From assembly GCA_013151035.1 (NCBI GenBank), contig JAADJB010000018.1:1-62862 (forward strand): 62,862 nt of DNA, in the 5' to 3' direction. The translations under genes were made by a program, and so were the position numbers. A model generated the notes under the pieces. It was not told where the DNA came from, did no database searches, and saw nothing but the letters and a program-made list of their open reading frames with translations. Shown piece by piece: positions 7,451-55,809 of this stretch. Source of the DNA: Gammaproteobacteria bacterium (lineage in GTDB: Bacteria > Pseudomonadota > Gammaproteobacteria > JAADJB01). The first letter of the stretch is position 1. Each line of letters begins with the position of its first letter.

Positions 7451-7463
7451 ACAGGAGATAGCT

Positions 7464-9335: not shown

Positions 9336-9360
9336 TCCTCTGGATAGCAGTATTGTGATT

Positions 9361-9407
9361 ACACCCCCATTCTCATTTGTATGGGAGTGGGGGTGTTTGT
9401 TTTTTAA
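9361..9407 (+). terminator. rho-independent terminator after nosZ
   Basis: Hairpin cacccccattctcat/atgggagtgggggtg followed by gtttgtttttt. Confidence 0.5.
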
Positions 9408-9428
9408 TGGACCAGGGGCTGATAACAA

Positions 9429-10739
9429 ATGTTGAGCAGGTTTTTTTTAACGGGCATCTGTGGTTTGTATTCCCTGTTATTTATTGGTCTGTCCTTTGCT
9501 GCTACACATATTACTGATCCATCCGGGGAATCACTGGATGAGATTCTTCAATATGCTCAAGCTGGAGATACCATTCGTTTCAAGGCAGGTGTCTATTCTG
9601 GCGGTAGTATTATTACGCAGTCTGTACATTTGATAGGTGAGCCTGGCAGTGTGTTTGATGCACAGGGTAAAGGTAATGTATTACAAGTGCGTTCACCTGA
9701 TGTCAGTATCGAAGGATTTGAGATACGTAATTCGGGTAACAATCTGACAAAGATGGATGCAGGTATCTTTGTTGAAAAAGAGGCGGTAAATGTTGAGATA
9801 AGAAATAACCGTTTTGAAAATAATGCGTTTGGTATATGGCTGGATGGTTGCCATTATCCAAAGGTGATTAAAAATAGAATTTCAGGTAATGTGGCTATTC
9901 GTTCACAGGATCGTGGTAATGGTATTCACTTGTATGCAGTTTATTATGGTCTGATAAAAGACAATGAGGTCTGGAATACACGTGATGGAATCTATATTGA
10001 ATCCAGTCAGAATAACCGCTTAATTGGTAATTTCCTGCATGATCTTCGCTATGGGGTGCATTATATGTATTCTTATAGCAATACAGTGAGTAATAATCAT
10101 ACTTTGAATACGCGTACAGGTTACGCCTTGATGCAGTCAAAATTCCTTACAGTAACCGGGAACCGTTCCGAGAATGACGGGAACTACGGGATACTGCTTA
10201 ATTTTATTACTAAAAGCACTATTACTGATAATGTGATTATTGGTACTCGCAAGGGACGTGGCTATGCTTCGGGTGGTGCCGGTGTAACGGGTGCAGAAGG
10301 TAAGGCATTTTTTGTCTATAACTCCCATTTTAATATTATGACAAATAATCATTTGCAAGGTGCTGATATTGGTATTCATCTGACTGCAGGTTCTGAAGAT
10401 AATATAATTTATGGAAATGATTTTATTGGAAATCATGTGCAGGTAAAGTATGTGGCGACACGGACACAGGAATGGTCACAGCAGGGCAAGGGAAATTACT
10501 GGAGTGATTACCTTGGCTGGGATCTTGATGCCGATGGTATTGGTGATCGACCCTATGAACCGAATGATGCCGTTGACAAGTTATTATGGCGCTATCCACT
10601 TGCACGTATTTTATTGAATAGTCCAGCGATTGAAACATTGCGTTGGGTACAGGAACATTTTCCTGTATTACGGCCTCAGGGTGTGCGTGATAGTTATCCA
10701 CTAATGAAACCGGGTTTCCCTCAAGAGATTGATTCATGA
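9429..10739 (+). CDS. nosD: NosD, periplasmic copper-insertion accessory protein (right-handed beta-helix)
   Basis: Signal peptide and parallel beta-helix repeats (NN.F.NN..GIWL.. pattern). Position in the nos cluster supports the call. Confidence 0.9.
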   Translation: MLSRFFLTGICGLYSLLFIGLSFAATHITDPSGESLDEILQYAQAGDTIRFKAGVYSGGSIITQSVHLIGEPGSVFDAQGKGNVLQVRSPDVSIEGFEIRNSGNNLTKMDAGIFVEKEAVNVEIRNNRFENNAFGIWLDGCHYPKVIKNRISGNVAIRSQDRGNGIHLYAVYYGLIKDNEVWNTRDGIYIESSQNNRLIGNFLHDLRYGVHYMYSYSNTVSNNHTLNTRTGYALMQSKFLTVTGNRSENDGNYGILLNFITKSTITDNVIIGTRKGRGYASGGAGVTGAEGKAFFVYNSHFNIMTNNHLQGADIGIHLTAGSEDNIIYGNDFIGNHVQVKYVATRTQEWSQQGKGNYWSDYLGWDLDADGIGDRPYEPNDAVDKLLWRYPLARILLNSPAIETLRWVQEHFPVLRPQGVRDSYPLMKPGFPQEIDS

Positions 10740-11674
10740 ATACTGTTATTGAGTTAAAAAAAGCAGGCAAGCGTTATGGGGAATTTGATGCACTCCATGA
10801 TGTTTCTATTGCTATTCATCCGGGTGAGGTGGTTGGTTTGCTGGGTCACAACGGGGCTGGGAAAACGACCACAATGAAGTTGATACTGGGTTTGATCGAG
10901 CCGTCGGCAGGTAGTATCTCCGTGTTTGGTGAGGTTCCATCCTTGCGTCATGTCAATAGTCATCAGTATGAGATTGGTTTTTTACCTGAGAATGTCAGTT
11001 TTTATCAGCACCTGACGGGCAAGGAGGTGCTGCAATATTTCGCTCGTCTGAAGGGCGTGGCTGAAAAAGAGGTATTCAAACTACTGGATCGGGTGGGACT
11101 GGGTTTTGCAATCAAGCGTAAGGTCAAGAACTACTCCAAGGGTATGCGTCAGCGTCTTGGGCTAGCACAGGCATTATTGGGTAATCCACGCCTGTTGATC
11201 CTGGATGAGCCGACAGCGGGGCTTGATCCTGAGGCAACCCGTGAGTTTTATTGTCTGCTGGATGAATTGAGTGAACAAGGGGTGACTATTTTAATTTCAT
11301 CACATGTATTACCCGGTATTGAAGGCCATATTGATCAGGCCATCATACTGTCCAGTGGGCAGTTGGTGACCTGTGGTAATCTCGATGACCTGAGAAAGGA
11401 GGCGGCGCTACCGATTGTCATTAGGGCATACGGTGATTGGGATCAGTCCTGTTGGGATCATAAAATGGATGCATTTGAGACAAGGCTTGAACATATTAAT
11501 ACTCAACAGATTGAGTGTGTTGGTCCGGAAAGTGAAAAGCTGGCAATACTGAGATTGTTGATGGAGAATCCAGGGGTTAATGATATTCAGATGTTAAATC
11601 CTGGTCTTGAGAGCCTTTATGAATACTTTAATCAGGATGTAGCAGACAGGGGGCAGACATGTCTCCGATCTTGA
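10736..11674 (+). CDS. nosF: NosF, ABC transporter ATP-binding protein
   Basis: Walker A GHNGAGKTT, ABC signature YSKGMRQRLGLA, Walker B LLILDEPT. Start overlaps the nosD stop (ATGA). Confidence 0.9.
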   Translation: MNTVIELKKAGKRYGEFDALHDVSIAIHPGEVVGLLGHNGAGKTTTMKLILGLIEPSAGSISVFGEVPSLRHVNSHQYEIGFLPENVSFYQHLTGKEVLQYFARLKGVAEKEVFKLLDRVGLGFAIKRKVKNYSKGMRQRLGLAQALLGNPRLLILDEPTAGLDPEATREFYCLLDELSEQGVTILISSHVLPGIEGHIDQAIILSSGQLVTCGNLDDLRKEAALPIVIRAYGDWDQSCWDHKMDAFETRLEHINTQQIECVGPESEKLAILRLLMENPGVNDIQMLNPGLESLYEYFNQDVADRGQTCLRS

Positions 11675-31999: not shown

Positions 32000-32116
32000 A
32001 TACTTACTATTGATCAGGGGTTCCTTAATCTTTGCTTGATGACTTTGGGTGAATATACCGGCCATTCGCCTCATGGTTTTATTGATTATGAGGTGAATAG
32101 CCGGTATATTCACCTC

Positions 32117-33226
32117 ATGAAGTACAATTGGCAACAAGATGACTGGCCTGATTTTCACTATGATATTTCCAGATTTCAGGATGTTTCATTCGTTTTTGCG
32201 GAGAAAACGGGGTATGTTAGCGGTCTTTTGAAAGGTCTGCCTGACCCCATGAAAACGGAAGCAATTATCAATCTTATGGTTTCTGAAGCGGTTAAGACTT
32301 CGGAAATTGAGGGGGAGTATCTAAATCGTTCTGAGGTGATGTCCTCTATCCGCCATAATCTGGGTCTGGATGAAGATAAAGAATCTGTTGCAGACCAACG
32401 TGCCAAAGGTGCCGCAGACCTTATGGTCGATATTCATAATGGTTTCAAGGAAACACTAACCAAAGAAAAACTCTTTGATTGGCATAAAATGTTGTTATCG
32501 GGTCAACATAGACGAATAGAAATTGGTGCGTGGCGAACCCACGAAGAACCCATGCAGGTTGTCTCTGGCCCTATTGGTAAATGGAAGGTTCATTTTGAAG
32601 CTCCGGCTTCTGAAAAAGTACCGGAAGAGATGGAGCGGTTTATAAACTGGTTCAATAGCACTGCACTGGGTGATAAAAATGAGATTAAAAATCCTGTTCT
32701 ACGCGCTGCTATTGCACATTTATATTTTGAGAGTATCCATCCCTTTGAAGATGGAAATGGACGTATAGGTAGAGCGTTATCTGAAAAAGCGCTATCACAA
32801 AATCTTGGTCGTCCTATTCTTTTAAGCCTGTCTGAAACTATAGAAAAAAATAAGAAGGCCTATTACAACGCATTGAAAACAGCGCAGCGATCAAACGAGA
32901 TAACAGAGTGGATAATTTATTTTTTAAGCACCATTATTGAAGCGCAAACCAGAGCCGAAGAAAATATAGTATTCATACTTAAGAAAACAAAATTCTTTGA
33001 TCAATTTGAAAACCAACTTAACGAACGTCAGTTAAAAGTAATTCGACGCATGTTAGAAAAGGGAATAGATGGCTTTGAAGGTGGCATGAGTACCAAAAAA
33101 TATGTGGCCATTACCGGTGCATCGAAAGCAACGGCTGCACGTGATTTGCAGTACCTGACGGAGATAGGCGTATTTAAGCAAACAGGCGGTGGTCGTAGTA
33201 CCCGGTATGAGGTTTATTTAGGGTAA
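32117..33226 (+). CDS. Fic-family protein (DUF4172 N-domain plus Fido domain)
   Basis: Fic motif HPFEDGNGRIGR. Start taken at MKYNWQQDDWPDF, the DUF4172-type N-terminus. The locus is AT-rich. Confidence 0.85.
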   Translation: MKYNWQQDDWPDFHYDISRFQDVSFVFAEKTGYVSGLLKGLPDPMKTEAIINLMVSEAVKTSEIEGEYLNRSEVMSSIRHNLGLDEDKESVADQRAKGAADLMVDIHNGFKETLTKEKLFDWHKMLLSGQHRRIEIGAWRTHEEPMQVVSGPIGKWKVHFEAPASEKVPEEMERFINWFNSTALGDKNEIKNPVLRAAIAHLYFESIHPFEDGNGRIGRALSEKALSQNLGRPILLSLSETIEKNKKAYYNALKTAQRSNEITEWIIYFLSTIIEAQTRAEENIVFILKKTKFFDQFENQLNERQLKVIRRMLEKGIDGFEGGMSTKKYVAITGASKATAARDLQYLTEIGVFKQTGGGRSTRYEVYLG

Positions 33227-33310
33227 GCTCTGATTTATGTCACACAGATGGCTTAGAAAAATTCCCGCCTGCGCGAGAATGGCGAGTTTTTTGGTGCGCG
33301 GTGCGGCACC

Positions 33311-34669
33311 CTACCGTGGTTTCTTTATCATCGCTTGAATCATAACGATCAGGAATAACAGGCCGCCGATGATTGCAATTAAACCACCCAGCCCCATCAT
33401 GGCCATACCGGCTATTTCGGGTAGTTGATCCAGGCCTTGTGCAGCACCGGCGGTCTTGCGTTGCACGCCGTAACCACCCGACCAGGCAAGCCCGAGGATA
33501 TGCATCAGTTGACCACCGCCATAGACGTAGGGTTGTATGCGCGCCAGTTTGGTATCGGGTGCGCTGAAGCCCAGTTTGGGTAATAACAGGTAGCCGAGTC
33601 CCATGAAGGCGAGGGTGATGCCTACGATAGAGCCATGATAGTGGGCGGGGATAACGACATTGATACCGTGGATCATAAAGGCGAGAACACCGCCGGTGGC
33701 AAATAACAGAACGGAGCAGATGAGGGCGTTTCTAATCGGACGCTGTGCACCGCTGGCCTTGTCTGCACGCAGTAAATAGTAAGCAATGATCAGACCAAGT
33801 GGCAGGCTGGTCAGTCCGCCCCAACGCATGAGTTCGGTGTAATTGATGCGGTGTTCCAGGCTATAGGTCTCACTGCCGAGTGAGATCGGGATGGCAATAA
33901 AGGCAGGTAGCAGACACAGTGCCAGTAATAAACGGGTTGTCTTTGGCGCGATGTTTAACGGGACTCCACTGCCTTGACTGATCCATAACCAGGCCACCAG
34001 CATCATCAGGCTGTGGGTGAATTGCAGCACATGGCCGCTTCCCCAGAACAGGTATTCAAAATAGGTTTTGCCGATCAGGTCGCTAGGCAGGGTGAGGTAT
34101 GAGTAAATGAAGATCAGTAATGCGATGAGGGTGGTCAGTGATGCACTGCGGATGCCAAATTGCAGGGCTTGAGAGGCGGTATAGGTTGTGCTACGCGGTG
34201 TCGTTGTGTGCAATAAAACGGGTATCAGTTGTAGTGCAATGCCGCTGATAAATAGACCTAGGCCAAGTAGAAACAGGGGTTGTTGCAGGATCGGGATATA
34301 GTTATTGAGTAGAGGTTGTGCTTCGCCAGTAAACGGCGCGATGATAATGGCGCTGGTACCGAGGATCGCCAGGCTTAGAGCTACCTTTTCTAATGTGGGT
34401 GCATATTGTGCCTGTTGTATACTCCATAGCAGGGCGGCAAAGGACAGGAACCAGATCAATACCGAGAGATCAACATGAACAATCAGTGCGGTATGAAAAA
34501 AATCAGTCCAGGGGATGATGTCCTGTATCCCTGGGGTACGGGAAAGCACCAGCAATAAGGAAAACAGACCCGCTGCAACCAGGGCGACCAGTCCCAGGTT
34601 AAGCCAGATAATGGGTCGTTTTTGCTGTGCCGGGGATAGCTCGGGCAGGGTATAGTCGTTTGGGTTCAT
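33311..34669 (-). CDS. polytopic membrane protein (~12 TM) with heme-copper-oxidase subunit-I-like motifs and an incomplete binuclear-site His set
   Basis: LFWGSGH (HCO helix-VI W-x3-H pattern), PAHYHGS (H-x-H as in HFHYV), and only one His where the HH pair is expected. Confidence 0.5.
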   Translation of the reverse strand: MNPNDYTLPELSPAQQKRPIIWLNLGLVALVAAGLFSLLLVLSRTPGIQDIIPWTDFFHTALIVHVDLSVLIWFLSFAALLWSIQQAQYAPTLEKVALSLAILGTSAIIIAPFTGEAQPLLNNYIPILQQPLFLLGLGLFISGIALQLIPVLLHTTTPRSTTYTASQALQFGIRSASLTTLIALLIFIYSYLTLPSDLIGKTYFEYLFWGSGHVLQFTHSLMMLVAWLWISQGSGVPLNIAPKTTRLLLALCLLPAFIAIPISLGSETYSLEHRINYTELMRWGGLTSLPLGLIIAYYLLRADKASGAQRPIRNALICSVLLFATGGVLAFMIHGINVVIPAHYHGSIVGITLAFMGLGYLLLPKLGFSAPDTKLARIQPYVYGGGQLMHILGLAWSGGYGVQRKTAGAAQGLDQLPEIAGMAMMGLGGLIAIIGGLLFLIVMIQAMIKKPR

Positions 34670-34682
34670 AGGGGTTTTTTCG

Positions 34683-34715
34683 TGTTATAAAAAAGGCCTC
34701 CGTCTGGAGGCCTCG
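34683..34715 (-). terminator. rho-independent terminator downstream of rpoH
   Basis: On the minus strand: aggcctcc agac ggaggcct followed by tttttt. Confidence 0.55.
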
Positions 34716-34717
34716 AA

Positions 34718-35587
34718 TTATATCGTAATCTGGAGCTTGAGCTTATTCATCGCGTTCTTTTCCAGTTGGCGAATACGTTCAGCGGATACCCCGAAGCGTG
34801 TTGCAAGGTCTTGCAGAGTGGTCTTTTTCTCGCCTAACCAGCGTTGCTGCAAGATGATCTGACTACGTTCATCCAGTTGTTTCATGGCGCGATAGAGCTG
34901 TTGTTTGTCTTGATCCTCGGTATCCTGAAGTTCAATCTCCAGTGCCGGATCGGTACGCTGATCCTGTAGATAACTGGCGGGGGCTGAGAATGATGCCTGT
35001 TCGTCATCCTCCTCGTTGCGTAGATCAAAGCCGATATCGGTGCCGCTAAGGCGTTTTTCCATCTCCAGTACGACTTCGGGTTTTACGCCTAGTTCCTCGG
35101 CAACGGTATTGACCTCTGCGTGACTGAACCAGCCCAGACGTTTCTTGGCAGAACGCAGGTTAAAGAATAATTTGCGTTGAGCCTTGGTGGTAGCAATCTT
35201 TACGATGCGCCAGTTCTTGAGGATAAATTCATGGATCTCGGAGCGAATCCAGTGCACGGCAAAGGATACCAGACGCACGCCAACATTGGGGTCAAAGCGT
35301 TTAACAGCCTTCATCAGACCTACGTTACCTTCTTGAATCAGGTCACCTAAGGGTAGGCCATAGCCGTTATAACCGCGCGCAATATGGATAACAAAACGTA
35401 GATGAGACAAAACCATTTTTCGCGCCGCATCAATATCGCCATGATTAAACAGGCGCCACGCCAAATCCTGTTCTTCCTCTGCACTCAGCATGTCGATACG
35501 ACTGGCTGTCTGCATATAACCACTCAGATTGCCATTGGGGATTAACATGGCAAAGTCTTGATTTTTAATGGCTAATTCATTACTCAT
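34718..35587 (-). CDS. rpoH: RNA polymerase sigma-32 (heat-shock sigma factor)
   Basis: 289 aa. ..[25 protein letters not shown].. and the RpoH box ..QRKLFFNLR... Confidence 0.95.
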
Positions 35588-35910: not shown

Positions 35911-37251
35911 ATGAGTAACAGCTTGCTACGGGGTTTTGCCTCGATTATTTTGCTAGCCATTTTTAATATTATTTTTCTTCGGGCAGTCGTTGCGGCTGAT
36001 GATGTCCCCAGACCTATTGTCCACTACCCTGAACGTGGTGTGGCGATGACAGAAAAATGGAAGGTGGTAAAGGATGGCTATAGCAATCCTAAGAAATACA
36101 TTCCGCCTATTATCGAGGGCGCAGGTAAGGATTGCGTCAAGTGTCACAAGGTGTTGACACCTGTTGCGGTGAAGGATTGGGAAGAAAGCAGGCATTATGA
36201 GAAGGGTGTCGGCTGCGAAAGCTGTCATAACGATCACAGCAACCTTATTATGCCGACCCCTGATACCTGTGGAACCTGTCATGCCTCCGAGACTATGCAG
36301 CATCGTGCAGGTAAACATTCTATCGCCTGGAGTATCAAGGTAGCATCGGGTGGTAAAGGTGGCGGTGCGGGTCGTTTCCTTGCCCAGTATGAAGAAATGA
36401 AAGAGGCCAGTTGTGGTGGTTGCCACAGTGTCGAAGATAAGTGTGATTCCTGTCATTCTCGTCACAAGTTTAATCCTAAAGAGGCACTTGAGCCGGCTGC
36501 CTGTGGCACTTGTCATATGGGGCCGGATCATGCGCAGCTGGATTATTATGAATCGTCAAAACACGGTGTCATTTTTGATATAGAAGGTAAGGGGTTTGAA
36601 GAGGGTGGTCGCGCGCCGACTTGTGTCACCTGCCACATGAAGGCCGGTAATCATGATGTCAGTCAGGGTCTGACCTTAGGTGGTGCCTCACAGGGCAAGT
36701 TTATCGGTAAGAAGGATACCGGTGCGGGATACAGCAAAAACCCTAATGGTATCTTGATGAATGAGATTACCGTAGGAACATTCAAACGTGAACGTGCCAA
36801 GATGGTCTCTATCTGTATGAACTGTCATTCACAGCGTTTTGCCGAACATAAGCTATCGGTTGCGGATGGTATCAAAATTGCCAGTGATGCTGTTGCGGGT
36901 GAGGCTATCAAAGTGATTAAATCACTTCATAGTGATGGCTTGTTGAATCCGATGCCGGAGGATAGACCAGAGAATCCATTCGTGGGTAAGAAATTGATGC
37001 TGACCGGGCATCAGCTTTATGAGCAGACATCCGGTATCGAGGCGCTGTTTTTTGAGTTGTATAAGTTTGATCTAGTCCATGCCTGGAAAGGAGCCTATCA
37101 CTTTAGCCCGGATTGGACGCACTGGTATGGTAATGCGCCAATGAAACTGAAGCTGTCCAGGATAAAGAACGAGGCAAACCAGTTGCGGCGCCTGGATAAG
37201 CTGGAAAAAGAGCTGGGTATTGAAGCAGAAAAGGTCGATTTCGGCGAGTAA
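35911..37251 (+). CDS. HAO-family octahaem cytochrome c (hydroxylamine-oxidoreductase-like, reductive type: no cross-link Tyr)
   Basis: Signal peptide and eight CxxCH motifs. Segments PTPDTCGTCH, KCDSCHSRHKF, PAACGTCHMGPDH..SKHG, APTCVTCHM and CMNCHSQRFA closely resemble Nitrosomonas HAO as recalled. Confidence 0.85.
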   Translation: MSNSLLRGFASIILLAIFNIIFLRAVVAADDVPRPIVHYPERGVAMTEKWKVVKDGYSNPKKYIPPIIEGAGKDCVKCHKVLTPVAVKDWEESRHYEKGVGCESCHNDHSNLIMPTPDTCGTCHASETMQHRAGKHSIAWSIKVASGGKGGGAGRFLAQYEEMKEASCGGCHSVEDKCDSCHSRHKFNPKEALEPAACGTCHMGPDHAQLDYYESSKHGVIFDIEGKGFEEGGRAPTCVTCHMKAGNHDVSQGLTLGGASQGKFIGKKDTGAGYSKNPNGILMNEITVGTFKRERAKMVSICMNCHSQRFAEHKLSVADGIKIASDAVAGEAIKVIKSLHSDGLLNPMPEDRPENPFVGKKLMLTGHQLYEQTSGIEALFFELYKFDLVHAWKGAYHFSPDWTHWYGNAPMKLKLSRIKNEANQLRRLDKLEKELGIEAEKVDFGE

Positions 37252-37257
37252 TTACGC

Positions 37258-37899
37258 ATGAGACTTATCGTAATGTTTTTATTCCTGTTGACCGCCAGCC
37301 TGACAGTGCAGGCTAAGGGGCTGCCGCGTGCGGAGAGTTGTGGTAGTTGCCATGTATCAAACTTTGATACCTGGGAGTCCTCTGCGCATGCTGACTCTAT
37401 TAGTCGCCAGGGCTTTCGCAGTTGTCTGGAAGACTATCTGGAAAAAGAAAGGACGAACAGTGGTGCCTATTGTTTTGACTGCCATGCGCCTGGTGAGGTG
37501 ATTAGTGGTGATGTCTTTGCGGCCACTAATGATGTCATGAAAGGTAAGTTGTATCGTGATGGTGTGACCTGTGTGGCTTGTCATAGTGTGGAGTCTATTC
37601 AAGACGGCAAGGCGATTTATGATCCGGGTGGCATTAACGGTTATCACAGTGTGAAGGATCTCAAGTCTGTTGATAGAGAGGCATTATGTTTGACTTGTCA
37701 TAGTCGCTATCAATCCACTCGCCCGGTGACGGAAGAAACGGCTCCTGGATTTTTTGAGAATCTTTATGCGGGTTTAAGTGGTGTGGTGAGCACAAAAAAC
37801 AAAACTATAACCGATCATCGCTTCGTTGAGTCGGTGGTAGAGAATGAAGGGCACTGGGAATGTAAATCGGGATCGCTGTTAGAAGAGGGACATCAATAA
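37258..37899 (+). CDS. tetrahaem cytochrome c, c554-like
   Basis: Signal peptide and four CxxCH motifs. N-terminal CGSCH..W.SSAHA resembles c554 (CSSCH..W..TAHA). About 210 aa. Confidence 0.7.
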   Translation: MRLIVMFLFLLTASLTVQAKGLPRAESCGSCHVSNFDTWESSAHADSISRQGFRSCLEDYLEKERTNSGAYCFDCHAPGEVISGDVFAATNDVMKGKLYRDGVTCVACHSVESIQDGKAIYDPGGINGYHSVKDLKSVDREALCLTCHSRYQSTRPVTEETAPGFFENLYAGLSGVVSTKNKTITDHRFVESVVENEGHWECKSGSLLEEGHQ

Positions 37900-39545
37900 T
37901 GTTACGTGGTATCTTTATACTACTGACCAGTCTGTGCTTATCAGTGGCATTCCTTACGACGGCACAAGCCGCAGGTTATGCTGCCAGTGCAAACATTGAT
38001 AGTGCCAAAAAAGAGGGCGCAGCCGACTGTAAGTCGTGTCACGAAGAAACTAAAAAACCTGAAAGATATGAGTCGGCCAGATCCTGGCTAAAGAGTCGTC
38101 ATGCGGCGGAGGGTGTAAGCTGTGTTGATTGTCATCTGAAACAGGATGTTAAGGGTCAGGACTTTTACACAGCGGTTACTACAGAGAGTCGGCAAGAGGC
38201 ACATGCCGCCATGGTGGCTGACCCTGATAATAAGGAAAACAAGGCCTACTTTATAGAGGTCTGTGGTAGTTGTCATCAAGATAGATTAACGGAATTTAAT
38301 GCCAGCGTTCATGGCGTAGCAAACAGCAAGAGTGAGACCACAGCGGTGAGTTGTGTGGATTGCCATGACCCTCATTTGGCACCCCTGGTGACCAGCAAGG
38401 CATCGAAGATCTACCGGGGTAATGATACCAATACCTGTGGTCGATGCCATAAGGATGCCCTCGGCTCCTACATGAAGACCTTCCACGGCAAGCAATTTCA
38501 TTTAGGGAATACCCTGGCTCCGACCTGTATCTATTGTCATCGAGGTCATGAAGTACCCACCGATTCCCCTGCCTCGTTTATTCATGCCGATAATATTGGT
38601 GGTCTATGTGCCGGTTGTCATGGTGATGCCATTAATGCCGGTGCCGGTGCTGATGCCCTGCTGATACAAAATTTAAGCGGTGATTCCACGCGTAAGGTGA
38701 CTCATTTCCGTGATCCGGTAACGGCCGGGCCTTTCTCGGTTGCCTCCATGATTGATTCGACCTATCTGGCGATGATTATTGGTATTGTCGGGTTTTTCAC
38801 CTTGCTTTCCACACGCGATTATATGAAAAAGACCCAGGCGGGTGCCTCCAGTAGTGAGGATGATAATAAACCGAGTGTGAAACGCTTCTCTATCTCCTGG
38901 CGTTTACAGCATTTCTTCTGGGCTTTGTCATTTATTCTTCTGGCAGCAACGGGTCTCTCGCTTAAATTCCCTGAGTCAGTGCTTTCTGAGGCAGTGGTGT
39001 GGATGTCAGGTGGTGAAGAACTGCGTTCTATTATTCACCGCATTGCCGCGATTGTCTTTATGCTGTTGGCGGCTATTCATCTATTGCCCTATCTGCTCAA
39101 GTTGAAACCACCGGGTAAGATATTCCTTAGCAAAAAAGATTTTATTGATGCCTTTTTGCACACTAGTTATCTGTTTGGCAGAGCCGATAAAATGCCGTTG
39201 ATGTACCGTTATGCCTGGTATCAGAAGGTGGAATACTGGGCGACAGTGATCGGTGGTTTCATTGTTATATCAACCGGGCTATTGATGTGGAATTTCTCTC
39301 CACTGGCAAGCTGGATTCCAGTTGAATTTGTTTTTTATGCGCAGTTGATACACGGTTGGGAGGCAATCCTGGCGGTGCTGGTCATCTTTGTGCAGCATTT
39401 CTATCATGTGTTCCTGAATCCTGATGTGTTCCCGATGGATACCTCATGGTTAACCGGCAAGACCAAGTACAAGGTGATGAAGCATGATCATCCGCTTGAA
39501 TTGATGGAGATAGAATCAAAAAAGGAGAAAGCCGATGAGGATTAA
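37899..39545 (+). CDS. heptahaem cytochrome c fused to a C-terminal FdnI/HyaC-type dihaem cytochrome b membrane domain (CbcL-like quinone-reactive subunit)
   Basis: Seven CxxCH motifs in the periplasmic part. Five TM helices follow, with RLQHFFW, AAIHLL, LIHGWEA and VQHFYH His patterns typical of Ni_hydr_CYTB/FdnI cytochrome b. Confidence 0.8.
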   Translation: MLRGIFILLTSLCLSVAFLTTAQAAGYAASANIDSAKKEGAADCKSCHEETKKPERYESARSWLKSRHAAEGVSCVDCHLKQDVKGQDFYTAVTTESRQEAHAAMVADPDNKENKAYFIEVCGSCHQDRLTEFNASVHGVANSKSETTAVSCVDCHDPHLAPLVTSKASKIYRGNDTNTCGRCHKDALGSYMKTFHGKQFHLGNTLAPTCIYCHRGHEVPTDSPASFIHADNIGGLCAGCHGDAINAGAGADALLIQNLSGDSTRKVTHFRDPVTAGPFSVASMIDSTYLAMIIGIVGFFTLLSTRDYMKKTQAGASSSEDDNKPSVKRFSISWRLQHFFWALSFILLAATGLSLKFPESVLSEAVVWMSGGEELRSIIHRIAAIVFMLLAAIHLLPYLLKLKPPGKIFLSKKDFIDAFLHTSYLFGRADKMPLMYRYAWYQKVEYWATVIGGFIVISTGLLMWNFSPLASWIPVEFVFYAQLIHGWEAILAVLVIFVQHFYHVFLNPDVFPMDTSWLTGKTKYKVMKHDHPLELMEIESKKEKADED

Positions 39546-40074
39546 TCGGTTGTCTCTATTGATGTTGGTGATGGGGCTTGCTTCGTTACTGTTGGCACCT
39601 GCTCAGGCGAGTGATGAAAGCTGTATTAGCTGCCATTTACACAGCGAATTGAGTCAGGACTTTGCTGCGCCATTACATGATATCAAAACGCTGGCCGGAT
39701 TCCATGGCTATGTATTCAAACAAAGAGGGTCTGATGCCGATTGTCAGGTCTGCCATGAATCAGGTCAGACCAAGGGCGAACTCCCATCGGCACAGGTCTG
39801 CCTGACGTGTCACACCCGAGGCAAGTCGACACAGGGTGATCCTGATACGGTCTTTCATGCCGAAGAGAATCACTGGCCGATGGAAAAGGTGTCGTGTACC
39901 ACCTGCCATAAAGGTCACGTTGCCGGTAACAGGATAATTAAATTTATGACGGGTGATGCGATCAATGCCTGTCAGCAATGTCACAAGAAAAGTTTTAAGA
40001 CAATATCCGGTTTGGATAAAAGCGGTGAGCCGGCAACAGTGAATGAACCGGACAACCGTTATGGGCAAAATTAA
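39535..40074 (+). CDS. pentahaem cytochrome c, NrfB-like
   Basis: Signal peptide and five CxxCH motifs in about 179 aa. Confidence 0.7.
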   Translation: MRINRLSLLMLVMGLASLLLAPAQASDESCISCHLHSELSQDFAAPLHDIKTLAGFHGYVFKQRGSDADCQVCHESGQTKGELPSAQVCLTCHTRGKSTQGDPDTVFHAEENHWPMEKVSCTTCHKGHVAGNRIIKFMTGDAINACQQCHKKSFKTISGLDKSGEPATVNEPDNRYGQN

Positions 40075-40092
40075 GACAAGAGGTTATTGATA

Positions 40093-41394
40093 ATGAGTGC
40101 TACTGAGAATATGGCTGTTTTTGCAGTATCGCTGGATACTGTGTGGGTGATTATTGCGGCTGTTCTGGTCTTTATGATGAATGCCGGGTTTGGCATGTTG
40201 GAGGCGGGGCTTTGTCGGGCAAAGAATACGGTGAACATCTTTGCCAAGAACATTGTTATCTTTGCCATTGCCGGTTTGAGTTTCTGGCTGGTGGGCTTTG
40301 GTTTGATGTTTGGTGATGGTAATTCACTGATGGGGATGACCGGCTGGATGTTATCCGGTGTCGATAATAGCCCGGCGGTGGGTGACTATTATTATGGTGA
40401 TTATACTTCTCTTAGTTGGGCGGCCTTACCCCTGTATGCCAAGGTTCTATTTCAACTGATGTTTGTTGCTGCCTCAGCGCATATTGTCTCCGGTGCGGTA
40501 ACCGAGCGCATCAAGTTTTTCTCATTTATTGCCTTCTCTATAGTATTGGTTGCCATTATTTATCCGGTTGTTGGTCACTGGGCATGGGGTGGTGGTTGGT
40601 TGTCTGATCTGGGTTTTATTGATTTTGCCGGTAGTTCGGTGGTGCATTCTGTTGGTGGCTGGGCGGCACTAACAGGAACGATTATTCTGGGTGCGCGGGC
40701 AGGTAAATTTACCCGTGATGGCAGGGTGTCACCTATTCCGGGGCATAACCTGGCGATGGCGGCATTGGGCATGTTCCTGTTGTGGTTCGGTTGGTTTGGT
40801 TTTAATGCGGGCAGTGCAATGACAGCATCAAGTGGCGAGCTGATTGCCACAGTGGCACTCAACACAACGCTGGCGGCGGCAGCGGGTGTAATCAGTGCCT
40901 TGATTGCTGCCGAGGTGCTTATTGGTAAACCGGATATGAGTATGATTCTTAATGGTGCATTGGGTGGCCTGGTGGCGATTACAGCGGGTTGTGCCGAGGT
41001 TAGCACCAGTGGTGCCGTCATTATCGGACTTGTCTCCGGTGTGTTGGTGGTCTACTTTATTATGTTACTCGATAGACGGCGTATTGATGATCCTGTTGGT
41101 GCGGTGCCGGTGCATCTTGTCAACGGTATCTGGGGCACATTGGCTGTTGGTTTATTTAGCCTGAGTGAAGGCTTCTTTTATACCGGGGAGTTGTCATTGT
41201 TGACGACTCAGTTGATCGGGGTTGCTGCGATTGCGGTCTTTGCCGGGGGTGGTAGTTATCTTGTCTGGCACCTGGTCAGTCTGCTTTTGGGTGGCTTGCG
41301 TGTGAGTCAGGAAGAAGAACACATTGGTCTTGATATCAGTGAGCATGGTATGGAGGCCTATCCTAGTAGTTCAGGCCCCAGGGCTCTTTATTAA
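40093..41394 (+). CDS. amt: ammonium transporter (Amt family)
   Basis: 11 TM helices. Amt motifs ..DFAGSSVVHSVGGWAAL.. and twin-His region ..GLFS.. Confidence 0.9.
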   Translation: MSATENMAVFAVSLDTVWVIIAAVLVFMMNAGFGMLEAGLCRAKNTVNIFAKNIVIFAIAGLSFWLVGFGLMFGDGNSLMGMTGWMLSGVDNSPAVGDYYYGDYTSLSWAALPLYAKVLFQLMFVAASAHIVSGAVTERIKFFSFIAFSIVLVAIIYPVVGHWAWGGGWLSDLGFIDFAGSSVVHSVGGWAALTGTIILGARAGKFTRDGRVSPIPGHNLAMAALGMFLLWFGWFGFNAGSAMTASSGELIATVALNTTLAAAAGVISALIAAEVLIGKPDMSMILNGALGGLVAITAGCAEVSTSGAVIIGLVSGVLVVYFIMLLDRRRIDDPVGAVPVHLVNGIWGTLAVGLFSLSEGFFYTGELSLLTTQLIGVAAIAVFAGGGSYLVWHLVSLLLGGLRVSQEEEHIGLDISEHGMEAYPSSSGPRALY

Positions 41395-51726: not shown

Positions 51727-54700
51727 ATGGAAGGTAAATTAGACATTATGACTAAATCACCAAAAACTAAACGTGAGTCATTTGTAGATATTAAGGAACG
51801 TGCAGAACTAATGACAACATTACGTGAGCATGTTAAACAACGCTCTGGCACACAAGCCGAAAAAGCTGGTGATCTTGGTATTACCCAGCCTCGTTTGAAT
51901 GATTTACTCAAAGATCGAATTGATAAATTCAGCCTGGATGCGCTTGTCACACTAGCAACAAAAGCCGGGCTACGCGTTAATATGAACGTTCAGAATGTAC
52001 AAATCCAAGCAGGTCTAGGAACAATTAAGTCAAATCTTGGACCAATACTATCAATATTTGCTCCAGCGCCTAGTGAGTTGGGTAAGTTAGATGCGGCATT
52101 AGGCACCAGCGTTTTTCTTGGTTTATTGCGATGTGAAGCTATTGCGAATGGGTTAAGCTCGAAGGATGTGGTGGTATCATTAAATATCAACATAAAAGAT
52201 GGTGGGGTTGATGCAAAAGTAGATAATTCCCCTACATCCAGCTCCCTGTTATCTAAGGGTAGCACGCACTTTCAAATAAAAACGGGGCCTAGCTTCAAGC
52301 CATGGCAACCCAGTGCCTTAAAGAGAGAATTATTTGGAAAATCGACTGCTAAACCCTCTAAAAAATTATTAGGCGACGAATTAAAAAACTGCCTTGATAA
52401 AAATGGAACATATGCTCTTATTACTTTTGGCCATGATCTATTGCCAAATCAACATACAAAAATAATAAATGAACTTACTAAGTTATTTGAGGCCTGCGGT
52501 TATAAAAGTCCAAAGGTTGGGGTGTTTGGGCAAGGTCAGCTAGTCAGCGAGTTAGATAAATATCCATCTATTTGTCTTTCCTTATTTGGCTTAGACGAAG
52601 GTGGTTTTTTGTCTATTGCAGGCTGGCGTGGAAAGGCTCAAATGCAGCTACCGTTAGAGCTTGGAGATGAACAAAAAACCTTAATACAAGACATACGAAC
52701 AACCTTACAAGATGATACTGTACAGCACATCCGAATAATTGGTGAACCTGGTATTGGTAAGACTCGACTTGTTCTTGAGTCTGTTTCTACTAATGAAATA
52801 GCGCCATCAGTGATTTATGTCCCAACAGGTGAAGATTTTCAGAAAAGCAAATTATTCAATGAGCTTCTCAAATCAGAAAAGCACTATTCTGTTACCTTAG
52901 TCATAGATGATTGTGATGATCGTGACAGATCATCAATTTGGTCGGCATTGAAAGGTCATAGTGGAATCAAATTAATCACAATCGATCATGGATCAGATGA
53001 AACTCATGACAGCACCATGAAGAGTATTATTTGTCCGCAACTGCAAGAAGAGCAAATTAAAAATATTTTGCACTCTTATCTTCAAAAAAATATGGATCTA
53101 CACAATTGGGCTACTTGGTGTAGTGGATCACCTCGTGTCGCACACGCTGTTGGTGAAAATCTTAAAAGTAATCCTGAAGATATTCTCAAATCACCGGCAG
53201 ATGTACCTATTTGGGATCGTTTTATCATTGGTCATAAAGCAATGGATAGCCGTGATGCAGAGCAACACAGGCTTGTGATGCGTCATATTGCTTTGTTTCA
53301 CCGCTTCGGTTTTGAATCGCCAGTGAGTGAAGAAGGTCAATTTATTTGCAACCTCATCAAAGAGGTTGATCCAACAATGACTTGGGGCAGATTCCAAATA
53401 ATTGTACAGCACTATCGAAACAAGCGGGTATTACAGGGTCGACACACATTATTTATTGTACCTAAAGCTTTACATATTCATCTCTGGGTTGAGTTTTGGG
53501 ATAACTACGGGCGAGGATTTGAGTTTATAACCTTTTTAGAGAAAGTCCCCACCAGCATGAAACACTGGTTTTTACAGTTATTTATTTACGCTCATAAGGC
53601 CGCTCCAGCTCAAGATGTAGTAAAAAAGATTTTATCTCCAAAAGGTCCATTCTCAAATCAATCATTCATGAAATCAGAAGTTGGTCTTCGGTTTATAAAG
53701 TACTTAGCAGAAGCAGATCCTATTGCCACACTTGCATTGTTGGAAAGAACGATTAATACTTGGACATATGAGGATCTGTATAAATGGGATGCAGGTCGTC
53801 AAGACATAGTTTGGGCATTAGGAAAAATCTCTGTTTGGGATAGTCTCTTTATTCGTTCAGTAAATATATTGATTCTAATTGTATTAACGGAGAATAGTAC
53901 TTATTCAAATAATTCCAAAGGACTTCTATTAAAGCTGTTCAGCACTGGTCTAGGGTGGGCGCCTACTGAAGCAGCACCGTCGAAACGAATTCCTTTCTTA
54001 AAAGAACTGGTGAAAAGTAGCGATGTGAATAAGCGAGCATTAGGCTTAGAATTATGTCAAGAATGGCTAAAAACTCGTGGTGGTTATAGGATGATAGGTG
54101 CTGAATATCAAGGGCTGAGGCCACCAATTGAATTTTGGTATCCTACGACTTATGGAGAATTGTTTGATTATTGGCGTGAGGTATTGCGTTTTCTACACAA
54201 TGAAATGAAAGGATTTAACACTGCTGACCGAAATCAGGCTGCTAATGTTTTAGTCAACGCGGCCAGAGGGCTGATCAGAATCGATGAGATGTCGAATGAG
54301 GTGATGGATATCTTATTTGACCTTGCCAATGATGATGAGATTAACCGAAAGTTACTTACCCAATTTGTTATATGTGAGCTACAGCAAAGACATAAAAAGC
54401 CGGATAAAAAAATGCTCACTAAAATTCATAAGCTTGATAAGCTATTAACTGGTGAGTCATTGTGGGAGCGAACCAATCGATATGTTCTACATACCAATTG
54501 GGACGAGGATTATATGTTCCGCGGAGAAAAATACAAGAAATTAGACTTACCTAGCAAACGTGTACGCGAATTGGCTAAAGAGTACATGAATGATATCAAT
54601 ATCTTTTCAGAAAACTTAAACAAGTTGGTTCGGGAAAGTGGTCATAGACTGCCTGAATTAGGCGTGGAATGCGGCAAGCTTGCCACCCCTATATTTGATG

Positions 54701-55809
54701 AAGAAATCTTCTCGCATATTCAATTAAAAAGTAATGATATTAATGGCATCTTTATTGGTGGTTATTTGGCTGGCCTTCGCACACATGATGCTGTGCGCTG
54801 GGAAGAACGATTAAATTGCTTATTACACAATAAAGATCTTCGAGAAATTGCAGTAGATTGCATCATACGTTCCGGTTTCACCGAATCAATGTTGCGCTAC
54901 ATGCTTACTTTAATAAGGGAAGGAGAGCTAACATCCATTGCATTTGATAGATTTTCATTTGGGAAGCGCCTTAGTGATATTGAAGATGACTTTTTTCAAG
55001 AAATTATTATTACACTCCTGAAGTATAATGATAATACATCAGCAATTATCTGTACGCAGCTTGTTCAAAATTATTATTTTGATAAAGAATCTTCCGGTGA
55101 GTTTCCAGAGAAAATGGTATTTGATGTCCTCACAGCCACTCTTTTGACTAAAAATAAAGATCAGATGTATGAATACTATTGGAACATAATTGCTGAAGTA
55201 TTTCTTAAAAAACACCCTAATCGAAGCATTGAATTGCTCGCTAAAATTTTAACTAATATGGAAGCAATTTCACGTTATAGTCATTCGGATTACATCACAA
55301 AGGTTGCCGATAAAATTGTTGTTTTATACCCACATGAATCTTGGGAAATTGTTACTGATATATTGGCTTCAGAGATCATGAATCATTATGAAGTGATTTA
55401 CTGGCTGGGTGATACCGGATATGAAAGCAAACCAAAAAGAGGAGCCATTAGCTACATGCCTGCAGAAGAAATCATAAACTGGGTCAATGAAGATAGAGAA
55501 GAAAGATTCTGGCTAATACGAGACATTTTACCTAAAACTGTAGATCAGAATGATGGTGGTCAATTAACGCGATTGATTATCGAAGAGTTTTTCAATGATG
55601 ATAAAATGGTGGGTAGTTTGTTCATACATTTTCATATGGGAACCTGGATTGGGCATGAGAGTAACCACCTGTCTAAAATTCGTGATTCAGTTAGACAGTG
55701 GATATCGGAAGAGCCATCCATCAAAATCCAATCATGGCTAGGAAAATTCATTGATTACCTAAGCAACCACATAGAGGAGGATAAAATTAAAGAAGAAAGG
55801 GAATTTTAA
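51727..55809 (+). CDS. 1360-aa protein: N-terminal XRE-type HTH, unknown ~230-aa domain, STAND/AAA-type P-loop NTPase, ~900-aa alpha-helical repeat C-terminus
   Basis: HTH ..TQAEKAGDLGITQPRLNDLL... Walker A IIGEPGIGKTRLVLE. Walker B TLVIDDCDD. Long helical C-terminal region. An alternative start lies at 51748. Confidence 0.8.
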   Translation: MEGKLDIMTKSPKTKRESFVDIKERAELMTTLREHVKQRSGTQAEKAGDLGITQPRLNDLLKDRIDKFSLDALVTLATKAGLRVNMNVQNVQIQAGLGTIKSNLGPILSIFAPAPSELGKLDAALGTSVFLGLLRCEAIANGLSSKDVVVSLNINIKDGGVDAKVDNSPTSSSLLSKGSTHFQIKTGPSFKPWQPSALKRELFGKSTAKPSKKLLGDELKNCLDKNGTYALITFGHDLLPNQHTKIINELTKLFEACGYKSPKVGVFGQGQLVSELDKYPSICLSLFGLDEGGFLSIAGWRGKAQMQLPLELGDEQKTLIQDIRTTLQDDTVQHIRIIGEPGIGKTRLVLESVSTNEIAPSVIYVPTGEDFQKSKLFNELLKSEKHYSVTLVIDDCDDRDRSSIWSALKGHSGIKLITIDHGSDETHDSTMKSIICPQLQEEQIKNILHSYLQKNMDLHNWATWCSGSPRVAHAVGENLKSNPEDILKSPADVPIWDRFIIGHKAMDSRDAEQHRLVMRHIALFHRFGFESPVSEEGQFICNLIKEVDPTMTWGRFQIIVQHYRNKRVLQGRHTLFIVPKALHIHLWVEFWDNYGRGFEFITFLEKVPTSMKHWFLQLFIYAHKAAPAQDVVKKILSPKGPFSNQSFMKSEVGLRFIKYLAEADPIATLALLERTINTWTYEDLYKWDAGRQDIVWALGKISVWDSLFIRSVNILILIVLTENSTYSNNSKGLLLKLFSTGLGWAPTEAAPSKRIPFLKELVKSSDVNKRALGLELCQEWLKTRGGYRMIGAEYQGLRPPIEFWYPTTYGELFDYWREVLRFLHNEMKGFNTADRNQAANVLVNAARGLIRIDEMSNEVMDILFDLANDDEINRKLLTQFVICELQQRHKKPDKKMLTKIHKLDKLLTGESLWERTNRYVLHTNWDEDYMFRGEKYKKLDLPSKRVRELAKEYMNDINIFSENLNKLVRESGHRLPELGVECGKLATPIFDEEIFSHIQLKSNDINGIFIGGYLAGLRTHDAVRWEERLNCLLHNKDLREIAVDCIIRSGFTESMLRYMLTLIREGELTSIAFDRFSFGKRLSDIEDDFFQEIIITLLKYNDNTSAIICTQLVQNYYFDKESSGEFPEKMVFDVLTATLLTKNKDQMYEYYWNIIAEVFLKKHPNRSIELLAKILTNMEAISRYSHSDYITKVADKIVVLYPHESWEIVTDILASEIMNHYEVIYWLGDTGYESKPKRGAISYMPAEEIINWVNEDREERFWLIRDILPKTVDQNDGGQLTRLIIEEFFNDDKMVGSLFIHFHMGTWIGHESNHLSKIRDSVRQWISEEPSIKIQSWLGKFIDYLSNHIEEDKIKEEREF

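Follow-up and report, generated by a model that had tools for sequence, protein, structure and literature searches.

We examined a 62,862-nucleotide stretch of gammaproteobacterial DNA (contig JAADJB010000018.1 of GenBank assembly GCA_013151035.1, taken at its full length and called the window below) and found that one of its genes encodes a paralog of subunit I of the heme-copper oxidases (HCOs) in which the ligands of both haem sites are kept and the CuB/FeB site is lost. This assignment, made by comparing aligned ligand positions, we regard as firmly established. The protein belongs to a family that is widespread, mis-annotated and essentially uncharacterised, and that is new within a known superfamily; its mechanism is hypothetical. 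We give about an even chance to the view that its members are copper-free, two-haem HCO paralogs that handle or use farnesylated haem in the biogenesis of oxidases and of eNOR, a nitric oxide (NO) reductase, and that the protein of the window is itself neither a terminal oxidase nor an NO reductase. The gene is an open reading frame (ORF):

33311..34669, minus strand: gene of the CuB-less HCO subunit I paralog, 452 aa

The encoded protein is a real homolog of HCO subunit I. In a Pfam scan its score for PF00115 (COX1) exceeded the curated cutoff (46.5 bits, gathering value 34.8, E = 3e-12), and the match covered residues 23–426 of the protein and positions 7–430 of the 436 in the model, which is nearly the whole domain. 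PF00115 was the sole Pfam family returned at E ≤ 1; NnrS (PF05940), which an earlier reading of this DNA made without database searches (the sequence-only reading) had put forward as one identity, gave no match at that level, and the relation to HCO subunit I that the same reading had proposed stands. A scan of the protein against NCBIfam returned zero families, a look-up of its exact sequence matched no contig, and among PDB sequences no HCO chain was found by phmmer with the protein or by hmmsearch with the family profile. With the PDB sequence searches empty, the HCO relationship is visible only through Pfam, profile-profile and fold comparison. The AlphaFold2 (AF2) model of the protein (predicted local distance difference test score, pLDDT, 85.7; predicted template modelling score, pTM, 0.88) has the 12 transmembrane (TM) helices of the HCO subunit I fold, in agreement with the 452-aa ORF of about 12 TM segments described previously. 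In the fold comparison, cNOR and qNOR matched the protein no better than oxidases did.

We mapped the ligands with three alignments that were concordant: MAFFT, profile-profile (hhalign), and a larger merged alignment. The alignment partners were canonical subunit I proteins encoded near homologs of the window gene, namely aa3-type proteins and B-like proteins of 570–600 aa (eNOR-type). The positions that carry the argument are as follows.

34475..34477, minus strand: codon of H65, which ligates the low-spin haem axially from helix II, aligned with H73 of the eNOR-type proteins and with the aa3-type

34022..34045, minus strand: helix VI motif W209-G-S-G-H213-V-L-Q216, aligned with WWGFGH (eNOR-type) and FWFFGH (aa3-type)

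33881..33886, minus strand: codons of I262-S263, which align with the helix VII His-His pair of canonical HCOs (H284/H285 in the eNOR-type; hhalign and MAFFT)

33851..33853, minus strand: codon of H273 (SLEHR motif), where helix VIII begins, 10–11 residues past the His-His site

33635..33643, minus strand: codons of H343-Y-H345 in helix X, aligned with the HFH of eNOR-type and aa3-type subunit I

33500..33502, minus strand: codon of H390, a family-specific His in helix XI (residues 373–397 in the model), at about haem depth

33455..33460, minus strand: codons of R404-K405, the counterpart of the propionate-binding Arg-Arg pair (R452/R453 in the eNOR-type, also RR in the aa3-type)

By alignment, H343 is the proximal ligand of the high-spin haem and H345 the second ligand of the low-spin haem, and together with H65 they make up the low-spin bis-His pair (H65/H345) and the high-spin proximal His (H343) that characterise an HCO, all near-invariant. 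The three-His CuB/FeB site is another matter: H213 in helix VI is the sole CuB/FeB-type histidine retained (one of three), and the His-His pair is replaced by I262/S263. LFWGSGH and PAHYHGS had been recognised by eye as the helix VI W-x3-H motif and the H-x-H haem pair, and they align as such (W209-x3-H213; H343-x-H345 in helix X). The same reading had placed a single His, that of SLEHR, at the His-His site; this is H273, which is out of register, and neither of the two histidines is kept. Since the pair aligns to I262/S263 and not to H273, the ligand set is more incomplete than had been described, and the three fuller alignments revealed no canonical pair.

The surroundings of the two haem sites show further departures. 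F217 occupies the cross-link position, four residues after H213 (H+4), where oxidases have Tyr and eNOR has Gln; Phe was found there in 100% of the sampled family, consistent with the earlier remark that the helix VI +4 position holds neither Tyr nor Glu. Q216, at H+3, aligns with a Gln that is invariant in the eNOR-type proteins. Polar residues of helix VIII, the K-channel region, that are invariant in the eNOR-type (T301, Y303, Y306, H315) are mostly replaced, T278 being kept. H390 is without a counterpart in eNOR-type or aa3-type subunit I, and a conserved E205 lies 8 residues ahead of H213, towards the P side. Compared with the B-like paralogs, family members also lack the 8-residue loop ahead of helix X (H-N-T-x-Y), the W-D that follows the Arg pair and the extra C-terminal helices, and the Mg/Ca loop is likewise among the features lost.

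Conservation was measured in 194 close members and in 141 divergent representatives at 32–52% identity. W209 and H213 were present in every sequence of both sets (194/194 close, 141/141 divergent), and the haem ligands were nearly as constant (H65: 193/194 and 140/141; H343: 194/194 and 139/141; H345: 194/194 and 138/141), as were Q216 (194/194 and 140/141) and the propionate-binding pair (R404: 194/194 and 136/141; K405: 194/194 and 137/141). H390 was found in 193/194 close and 114/141 divergent members. Two other histidines were common only among the close members: H273 (172/194 close, 37/141 divergent, with Phe in 40 and Tyr in 33 divergent sequences, that is, equally common) and H219 (170/194 close, 37/141 divergent). 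H273, as these counts indicate, is not a conserved ligand. Position 263, which aligns with the second His of the CuB pair, is Tyr in 184/194 close and 69/141 divergent members, and the family consensus at 262–263 is I-Y; the protein of the window and its closest relatives have Ser there (codon 33881–33883), as do 3/194 close members in all. Among the aligned members of both sets, zero had His-His at the canonical helix VII position, and no second-metal ligand set was conserved family-wide.

The family is large. The window protein has matches in over 6,500 database clusters at 90% identity, and when 1.84 billion representatives at 50% identity were searched exhaustively with the profile, 780 matched at E ≤ 1e-30. 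Members come chiefly from Gammaproteobacteria (Thiothrix, Woeseiaceae, Chromatiales, Pseudomonadales, Lysobacterales) and Burkholderiales, and a few are from other lineages. By hhalign, the family profile matched the B-like paralogs best (99.7%, E = 1.3e-26, 27% identity) and aa3-type subunit I far less well (78.7%, E = 1.7e-5, 18% identity). In the B-like paralogs, which retain the His-His pair and are accompanied by a CuA subunit II of 182 aa, the motif is GH-S-S-Q-Q and Gln stands in place of the Tyr; Gln at the cross-link Tyr position is diagnostic of eNOR (PMC8756737). Because the best profile match is to proteins that carry this Gln, we take the family to be a CuB/FeB-less offshoot of the eNOR/B-family branch; on this profile evidence it is a large, unnamed clade of HCO subunit I descended from that branch.

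Genomic context was analysed in 80 reference-genome loci plus four from an exact look-up, using our own ORF calls and all-against-all clustering, with the identities of neighbour clusters checked by Pfam and NCBIfam. At least one oxidase or biogenesis gene lay within 10 kb in 66 of the 79 loci that hold a family member, and 12 of the other 13 were contigs with little flank. ctaA or ctaB was present in 58/79 loci (median gap 233 bp) and a second COX1 of canonical length in 49/79. The neighbours verified were haem O synthase (TIGR01473, 328 bits > 210), CtaA, SURF1, Cox11, Sco and COX2/3. Two architectures recurred. In the first, the family gene faces ctaB, in convergent orientation, at that end of an aa3 operon which holds the biogenesis genes; the operon has the order COX2-COX1-Cox11-COX3-SURF1-TM-thioredoxin-(CtaA)-CtaB. 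In the second, it stands in or beside an eNOR-type cluster with subunit II, eNOR I (GHSSQQ), (CtaB), a TM-anchored Sco, a cytochrome b-2x[4Fe-4S]-FlpD fusion, a 171-aa protein without family match, hemerythrin, and one or two CtaA; this operon recurs in Woeseiaceae and other Gammaproteobacteria (L018, L028, L035, L038, L047, L048, L055, L058, L061, L065, L071, L082 and others). The cytochrome b-2x[4Fe-4S]-FlpD neighbour was found in 27 loci and an adjacent hemerythrin in 19.

Gene fusions lead to the same genes. One member (P0231) is a fusion of the HCO-like domain with a haem O synthase (TIGR01473, 250 bits > the equivalog cutoff of 210), and its gene is operonic, directly after a 509-aa COX1. 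Another (P0124) has an N-terminal cytochrome b domain ahead of the HCO-like part, and five representatives have C-terminal TPR domains with weak similarity to the haem-handling TPR of CcmH/CycH. The genetic coupling of the family to haem O/A synthesis and to haem-A-dependent HCOs is firmly established. The sequence-only reading had called the gene an orphan, which holds for the window and fails for the family at large, where 66/79 loci have genes of an oxidase, of eNOR or of haem-A biogenesis next to them.

Two side observations concern the loci of relatives. In one locus (L089, 437–3716) the 3′ end of a divergent member (P0210) overlaps a gene for a DsbD-type thiol-disulfide transporter, a possible further link to cofactor or copper-site maturation. 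In Thiothrix-type loci (L001, 6985–8004 and 10553–11332; L037; L054) a DUF2189 membrane-protein gene overlaps the HCO-like start by 4 nt, and within the aa3 biogenesis cluster a second DUF2189 copy stands where ctaA would be.

The copy in the window lies between these genes and signals:

34718..35587, minus strand: rpoH (sigma-32; TIGR02392, 398 bits), the only conserved neighbour retained

34693..34714, minus strand: hairpin resembling an intrinsic terminator, within the 48 bp that separate rpoH from the gene (9-bp stem, 6 GC pairs, T-run)

33261..33280, minus strand: terminator-like hairpin 3′ of the gene

32036–33226, plus strand: Fic/DUF4172 gene, the other flank of the HCO-like gene

The placement between Fic and rpoH and the absence of an adjacent subunit II or cupredoxin gene, both reported from the sequence alone, were confirmed, and the absence extends to the whole window: ctaA, ctaB, cox, SURF1, Cox11, Sco and subunit II genes occur nowhere in its 62.8 kb, and the only cupredoxin matches are within nosZ. 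The Fic gene has a G+C content of 0.39–0.41 against 0.46–0.54 in its flanks and occupies the position that ctaB has in relatives, as if the oxidase cluster had been displaced by an insertion or rearrangement. A rough neighbour-joining tree groups the protein with members from ftsYEX-rpoH-[gene]-ctaB...aa3 loci; its placement in this clade makes its orphan state a local rearrangement. It is also 46–57% identical to the copies in eNOR-type loci (L018, L028, L065, L078, L082).

Of the 10 loci that contain rpoH, 8 have it immediately ahead of the family gene and in the same orientation, and the arrangement is seen again in a relative with 93% identity (L085, 560–640). There the rpoH stop abuts the HCO-like start (TAAATG) with no hairpin, against the inserted spacer at 34669–34718 of the window. 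With a 48-bp hairpin spacer in one genome and TAAATG in the other, coupling of expression to rpoH differs between close relatives. Compared with this 93%-identical homolog, the window gene gave a synonymous divergence (dS) of 0.62 and a nonsynonymous divergence (dN) of 0.037 (dN/dS = 0.06), and the protein agrees with 103 of the 104 family columns that are at least 95% conserved. By these measures the gene is intact, under strong purifying selection and functional.

Downstream, beyond Fic, are cbbR and then a RuBisCO/CbbQ/CbbO cluster. Upstream of rpoH is ftsX-ftsE-ftsY, separated from it by an inserted multihaem-cytochrome/Amt cluster, and a nitrous-oxide reductase cluster lies nearer the start of the window:

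35911–41394, plus strand: insertion between rpoH and ftsX, with multihaem cytochromes and then an Amt ammonium transporter

5360–11674, probably to about 13000, plus strand: nitrous-oxide reductase cluster with a nosR-like gene (FMN_bind + Fer4_5), nosZ (nos_propeller repeats), nosD and a nosF-type ABC ATPase

The insertion includes a 446-aa HAO/HDH-like multihaem cytochrome (PF13447) that scores 137 bits with the hydrazine-dehydrogenase model, for which the cutoff is 900, a c554-like protein, a multihaem-cytochrome b561 fusion (548 aa) and a further multihaem protein. The nos cluster and a form I RuBisCO mark the organism as an autotrophic denitrifier. Elsewhere in the window, a 1360-aa ORF (51727–55809, plus strand) has an N-terminal HTH_37 as its only recognisable domain, and a PP2C phosphatase-Ser/Thr kinase fusion protein is encoded at 60117–61817 (plus strand).

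The published record bears on the family at several points. The three CuB/FeB histidines are conserved in all HCO families except gNOR, the first in which an active-site His was found replaced (Murali et al. 2024, PMC11214002). eNOR has a modified haem a in both sites, and ctaA is present in many eNOR operons (PMC11214002). A review of oxidase assembly lists no subunit-I-like factor and describes cofactor insertion into subunit I as poorly understood (Hederstedt 2022, PMC9145763). A preprint on Ferrigenium (2026) reports an eNOR operon, of a make-up said to be very common, that includes an “eNOR scaffold protein of unknown function”; its supplement annotates the product of the scaffold gene (IMG 2878407321) as hypothetical, assigns it KEGG K02274 (COX subunit I), and reports transcripts of the gene from autotrophic conditions and the protein itself in the proteome. 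That gene follows eNOR II/I, haem o synthase, Sco1 and cytochrome b/Fe-S and precedes a cytochrome b-FlpD protein, and our family holds the same position in L018, L028, L065, L078, L082 and others, so the Ferrigenium scaffold protein appears to be a member. The betaproteobacterial, eNOR-linked copy (L078), used as query, returned only generically named Burkholderiales proteins and no named Ferrigenium homolog. The preprint contains no ligand analysis or function and leaves the aa3/ctaB association unmentioned, and the window copy lies outside any eNOR operon. Our literature search for a CuB-less subunit I paralog returned no description beyond this mention of a scaffold protein. The preprint also raises the question of how O2 reaches CtaA in denitrifiers that use eNOR.

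We have proposed that the family handles or uses farnesylated haem. The protein would bind two haems, probably the farnesylated haem o/a, and these would be supplied by CtaB and CtaA, which are encoded beside the family or fused to it. It would then be accessory to the haem-A-containing HCOs, aa3 oxidase and eNOR. It might do so as a subunit-I-shaped acceptor or scaffold that holds haem o/a or hands it over during assembly, or it might serve as a copper-free redox module that partners the haem O/A synthases. Among the options of the sequence-only reading, a non-catalytic (or non-CuB) HCO homolog fits best.

Several points weigh against this proposal. The haem type and the absence of metal in family members are predicted from sequence. 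The complete relay from low-spin to high-spin haem, the cytochrome b fusion and the 27 loci with cytochrome b-2x[4Fe-4S]-FlpD resemble an electron-transfer enzyme more than a passive chaperone, and the linkage to ctaA/ctaB could, by analogy with cyoE in the cyo operon, reflect a mere need for the cofactor. Orphan copies are under selection (the window and L059; also the divergent L090) and thus have a function without the need of an adjacent oxidase cluster. The contexts of divergent members (about 35% identity) are mostly uninformative, and those of the divergent or TPR-fused P0138, P0210 and P0256 are short contigs or uninformative; the putative membership of the Ferrigenium protein comes from synteny and its KEGG Orthology annotation.

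The main rival, which we consider possible though doubtful, is a stand-alone, copper-free, haem-only redox enzyme for which the ctaA/ctaB linkage would mean a need for the cofactor and nothing else. Electrons would pass from quinol to cytochrome b (the fused or neighbouring cytochrome b-FeS protein), then to the low-spin and the high-spin haem, and H213 and Q216 would form a distal pocket in which a small molecule such as O2, NO or peroxide binds or undergoes reduction. The invariance of the haem sites, the propionate R/K pair and W209-x3-H213-x2-Q216 agrees with such an enzyme, as do the match of Q216 to the invariant eNOR-type Gln at H+3, the cytochrome b fusion of P0124, the 27 loci with a cytochrome b-Fer4-FlpD neighbour, the hemerythrin adjacent in 19 loci, and the strong selection on orphan copies. 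It would have to work, however, with no second metal, no redox-active Tyr at H+4 (F217), K-channel-type residues largely gone and no dedicated subunit II for electron entry, and the fusions to TPR domains and to haem O synthase, together with the placement at the biogenesis end of aa3 operons, suit a role in assembly better.

An improbable reading makes the family, as a copper-free two-haem HCO scaffold fed by the neighbouring cytochrome b-[4Fe-4S]-FlpD protein, a partner so far missing from haem A synthesis, for redox or gas handling. It would supply electrons and activated oxygen to the O2-dependent CtaA, or generate or scavenge O2 from NO in the manner of NO dismutase (NOD). The adjacency of hemerythrin, ctaA and cytochrome b-FeS and the question of the O2 supply of CtaA are compatible with this idea; if true, it would let haem a/As for eNOR and aa3 form under near-anoxic, denitrifying conditions.

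We regard as very unlikely a divergent NO reductase or oxidase whose second metal sits on relocated ligands (H213 with H273, H219, E205 or Y263). Within the close clade these residues are indeed frequent (H273 89%, H219 88%, E205 96%, Y263 95%), the family is an eNOR paralog, the window organism is a denitrifier with nosRZDF, and gNOR shows that ligand substitution is possible in HCOs (PMC11214002). In the 141 divergent members, however, the frequencies fall to 26% for H273, 26% for H219 and 49% for Y263, against at least 98% for the haem ligands; the window protein has S263, and there is no partner subunit II or NorC. The NO-reductase-like protein suggested by the sequence-only reading, if taken as one with a binuclear site, is likewise at odds with the family-wide absence of two of the three FeB/CuB histidines and of the diagnostic H+4 residue.

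Also very unlikely is a haem-based membrane sensor or regulator (of O2, NO or haem status), maybe tied to rpoH. Such a sensor would account for rpoH immediately upstream in 8 of 10 rpoH-containing loci and the TAAATG junction in L085, a distal pocket of His/Gln type would suit it, and one divergent member lies among sensor kinases and haem oxygenase. The rpoH adjacency, though, is limited to one gammaproteobacterial clade in which the aa3/ctaB cluster simply adjoins ftsYEX-rpoH, the core family is without an output domain, and a strong terminator separates rpoH from the gene in the window; because of this terminator and the single-clade adjacency, co-transcription with rpoH was down-weighted as a functional link. 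An NnrS-like protein, or a decaying, non-functional oxidase remnant as the lost catalytic ligands and the lost oxidase neighbours in the window might suggest, can be dismissed as refuted by the profile and selection results (no PF05940 match at E ≤ 1; dN/dS of 0.06 with dS of 0.62, full length, 103/104 conserved columns), the more so with about 780 clusters at 50% identity and an apparently equivalent protein seen in a proteome.

Six histidines are the signature of the HCO superfamily in classification schemes, and a family of about 780 clusters, with sequences in the thousands, breaks it at two of them. Annotated automatically as terminal oxidases, these genes lead to overestimates of aerobic or NO-reducing capacity, in the window genome among others. 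Through its linkage and fusion to haem O/A synthases, Surf1/Cox11/Sco and eNOR, the family is a candidate for two poorly understood steps: the delivery of farnesylated haem into subunit I, and the redox partner of bacterial haem A synthase.

We compared the window protein with the known HCO classes residue by residue. The O2-reducing A, B and C families have a redox-active Tyr, cross-linked to the helix VI His, at H+4 or (C family) one that has migrated to helix VII, where the window protein has F217 and S263. cNOR, qNOR and nNOR have FeB with three His and a helix VI Glu; the window protein has no His-His pair and no Glu at H+4. sNOR and bNOR have Asn at the Tyr position with three His and a gene cluster of the norSY-senC-orf1 type, and here Phe stands at that position, again with no His-His. 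eNOR is defined by Gln at H+4, three His and a CuA subunit II (PMC8756737), a combination that the window protein does not show, and gNOR by the change of one His to Asp, in place of which both helix VII positions are non-ligating and no Asp is present. The earlier statement that the protein fits neither the A/B/C oxidases nor cNOR/qNOR therefore extends to the eNOR, sNOR and gNOR signatures. Thermus thermophilus ba3 subunit I (PDB 1ehk, 3s8f) has three CuB His, a cross-linked Tyr237, a K-channel analogue and subunits II/IIa. Both gNOR and NOD are precedents for HCO scaffolds with substituted active-site ligands (PMC11214002); gNOR replaces one His by Asp and keeps the metal site and subunit II, whereas the window family has lost both helix VII His (consensus I/Y).

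Identity with other proteins of oxidase clusters was rejected. The “orf1”/CbaD of the sNOR cluster has about 6 TM helices and not the HCO fold (PMC3475470), and the known assembly factors (Surf1, CtaA, CtaB, Cox11, Caa3_CtaG, Sco, PCuAC, CtaM) were set aside with PF00115 as the sole match. Surf1/Shy1, a haem a chaperone of subunit I, is a possible functional analogy: it shares aa3 biogenesis clusters with the family, and a proposed role of Surf1 is the transient binding of haem a on its way from CtaA to subunit I (Hederstedt 2022, PMC9145763). Surf1 has 2 TM helices and a periplasmic domain and no homology to the window protein, and since the two co-occur in 19 loci, neither replaces the other.

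The closest characterised relative is subunit I of eNOR, an NO reductase of B-family origin (Hemp & Gennis 2008; Murali et al. 2024, PMC11214002), at 25–27% identity. Set against it, the window protein is without the His-His pair, the Gln at H+4 (Phe here), most K-channel-type polar residues, the loop ahead of helix X, the extra C-terminal helices and the CuA subunit II partner. The two have in common the 12-TM core, the haem ligand sets, W-x3-H, the Gln at H+3, M281 and the propionate-binding Arg, and eNOR subunit I and the family are often encoded together in one operon with ctaB, ctaA and Sco.

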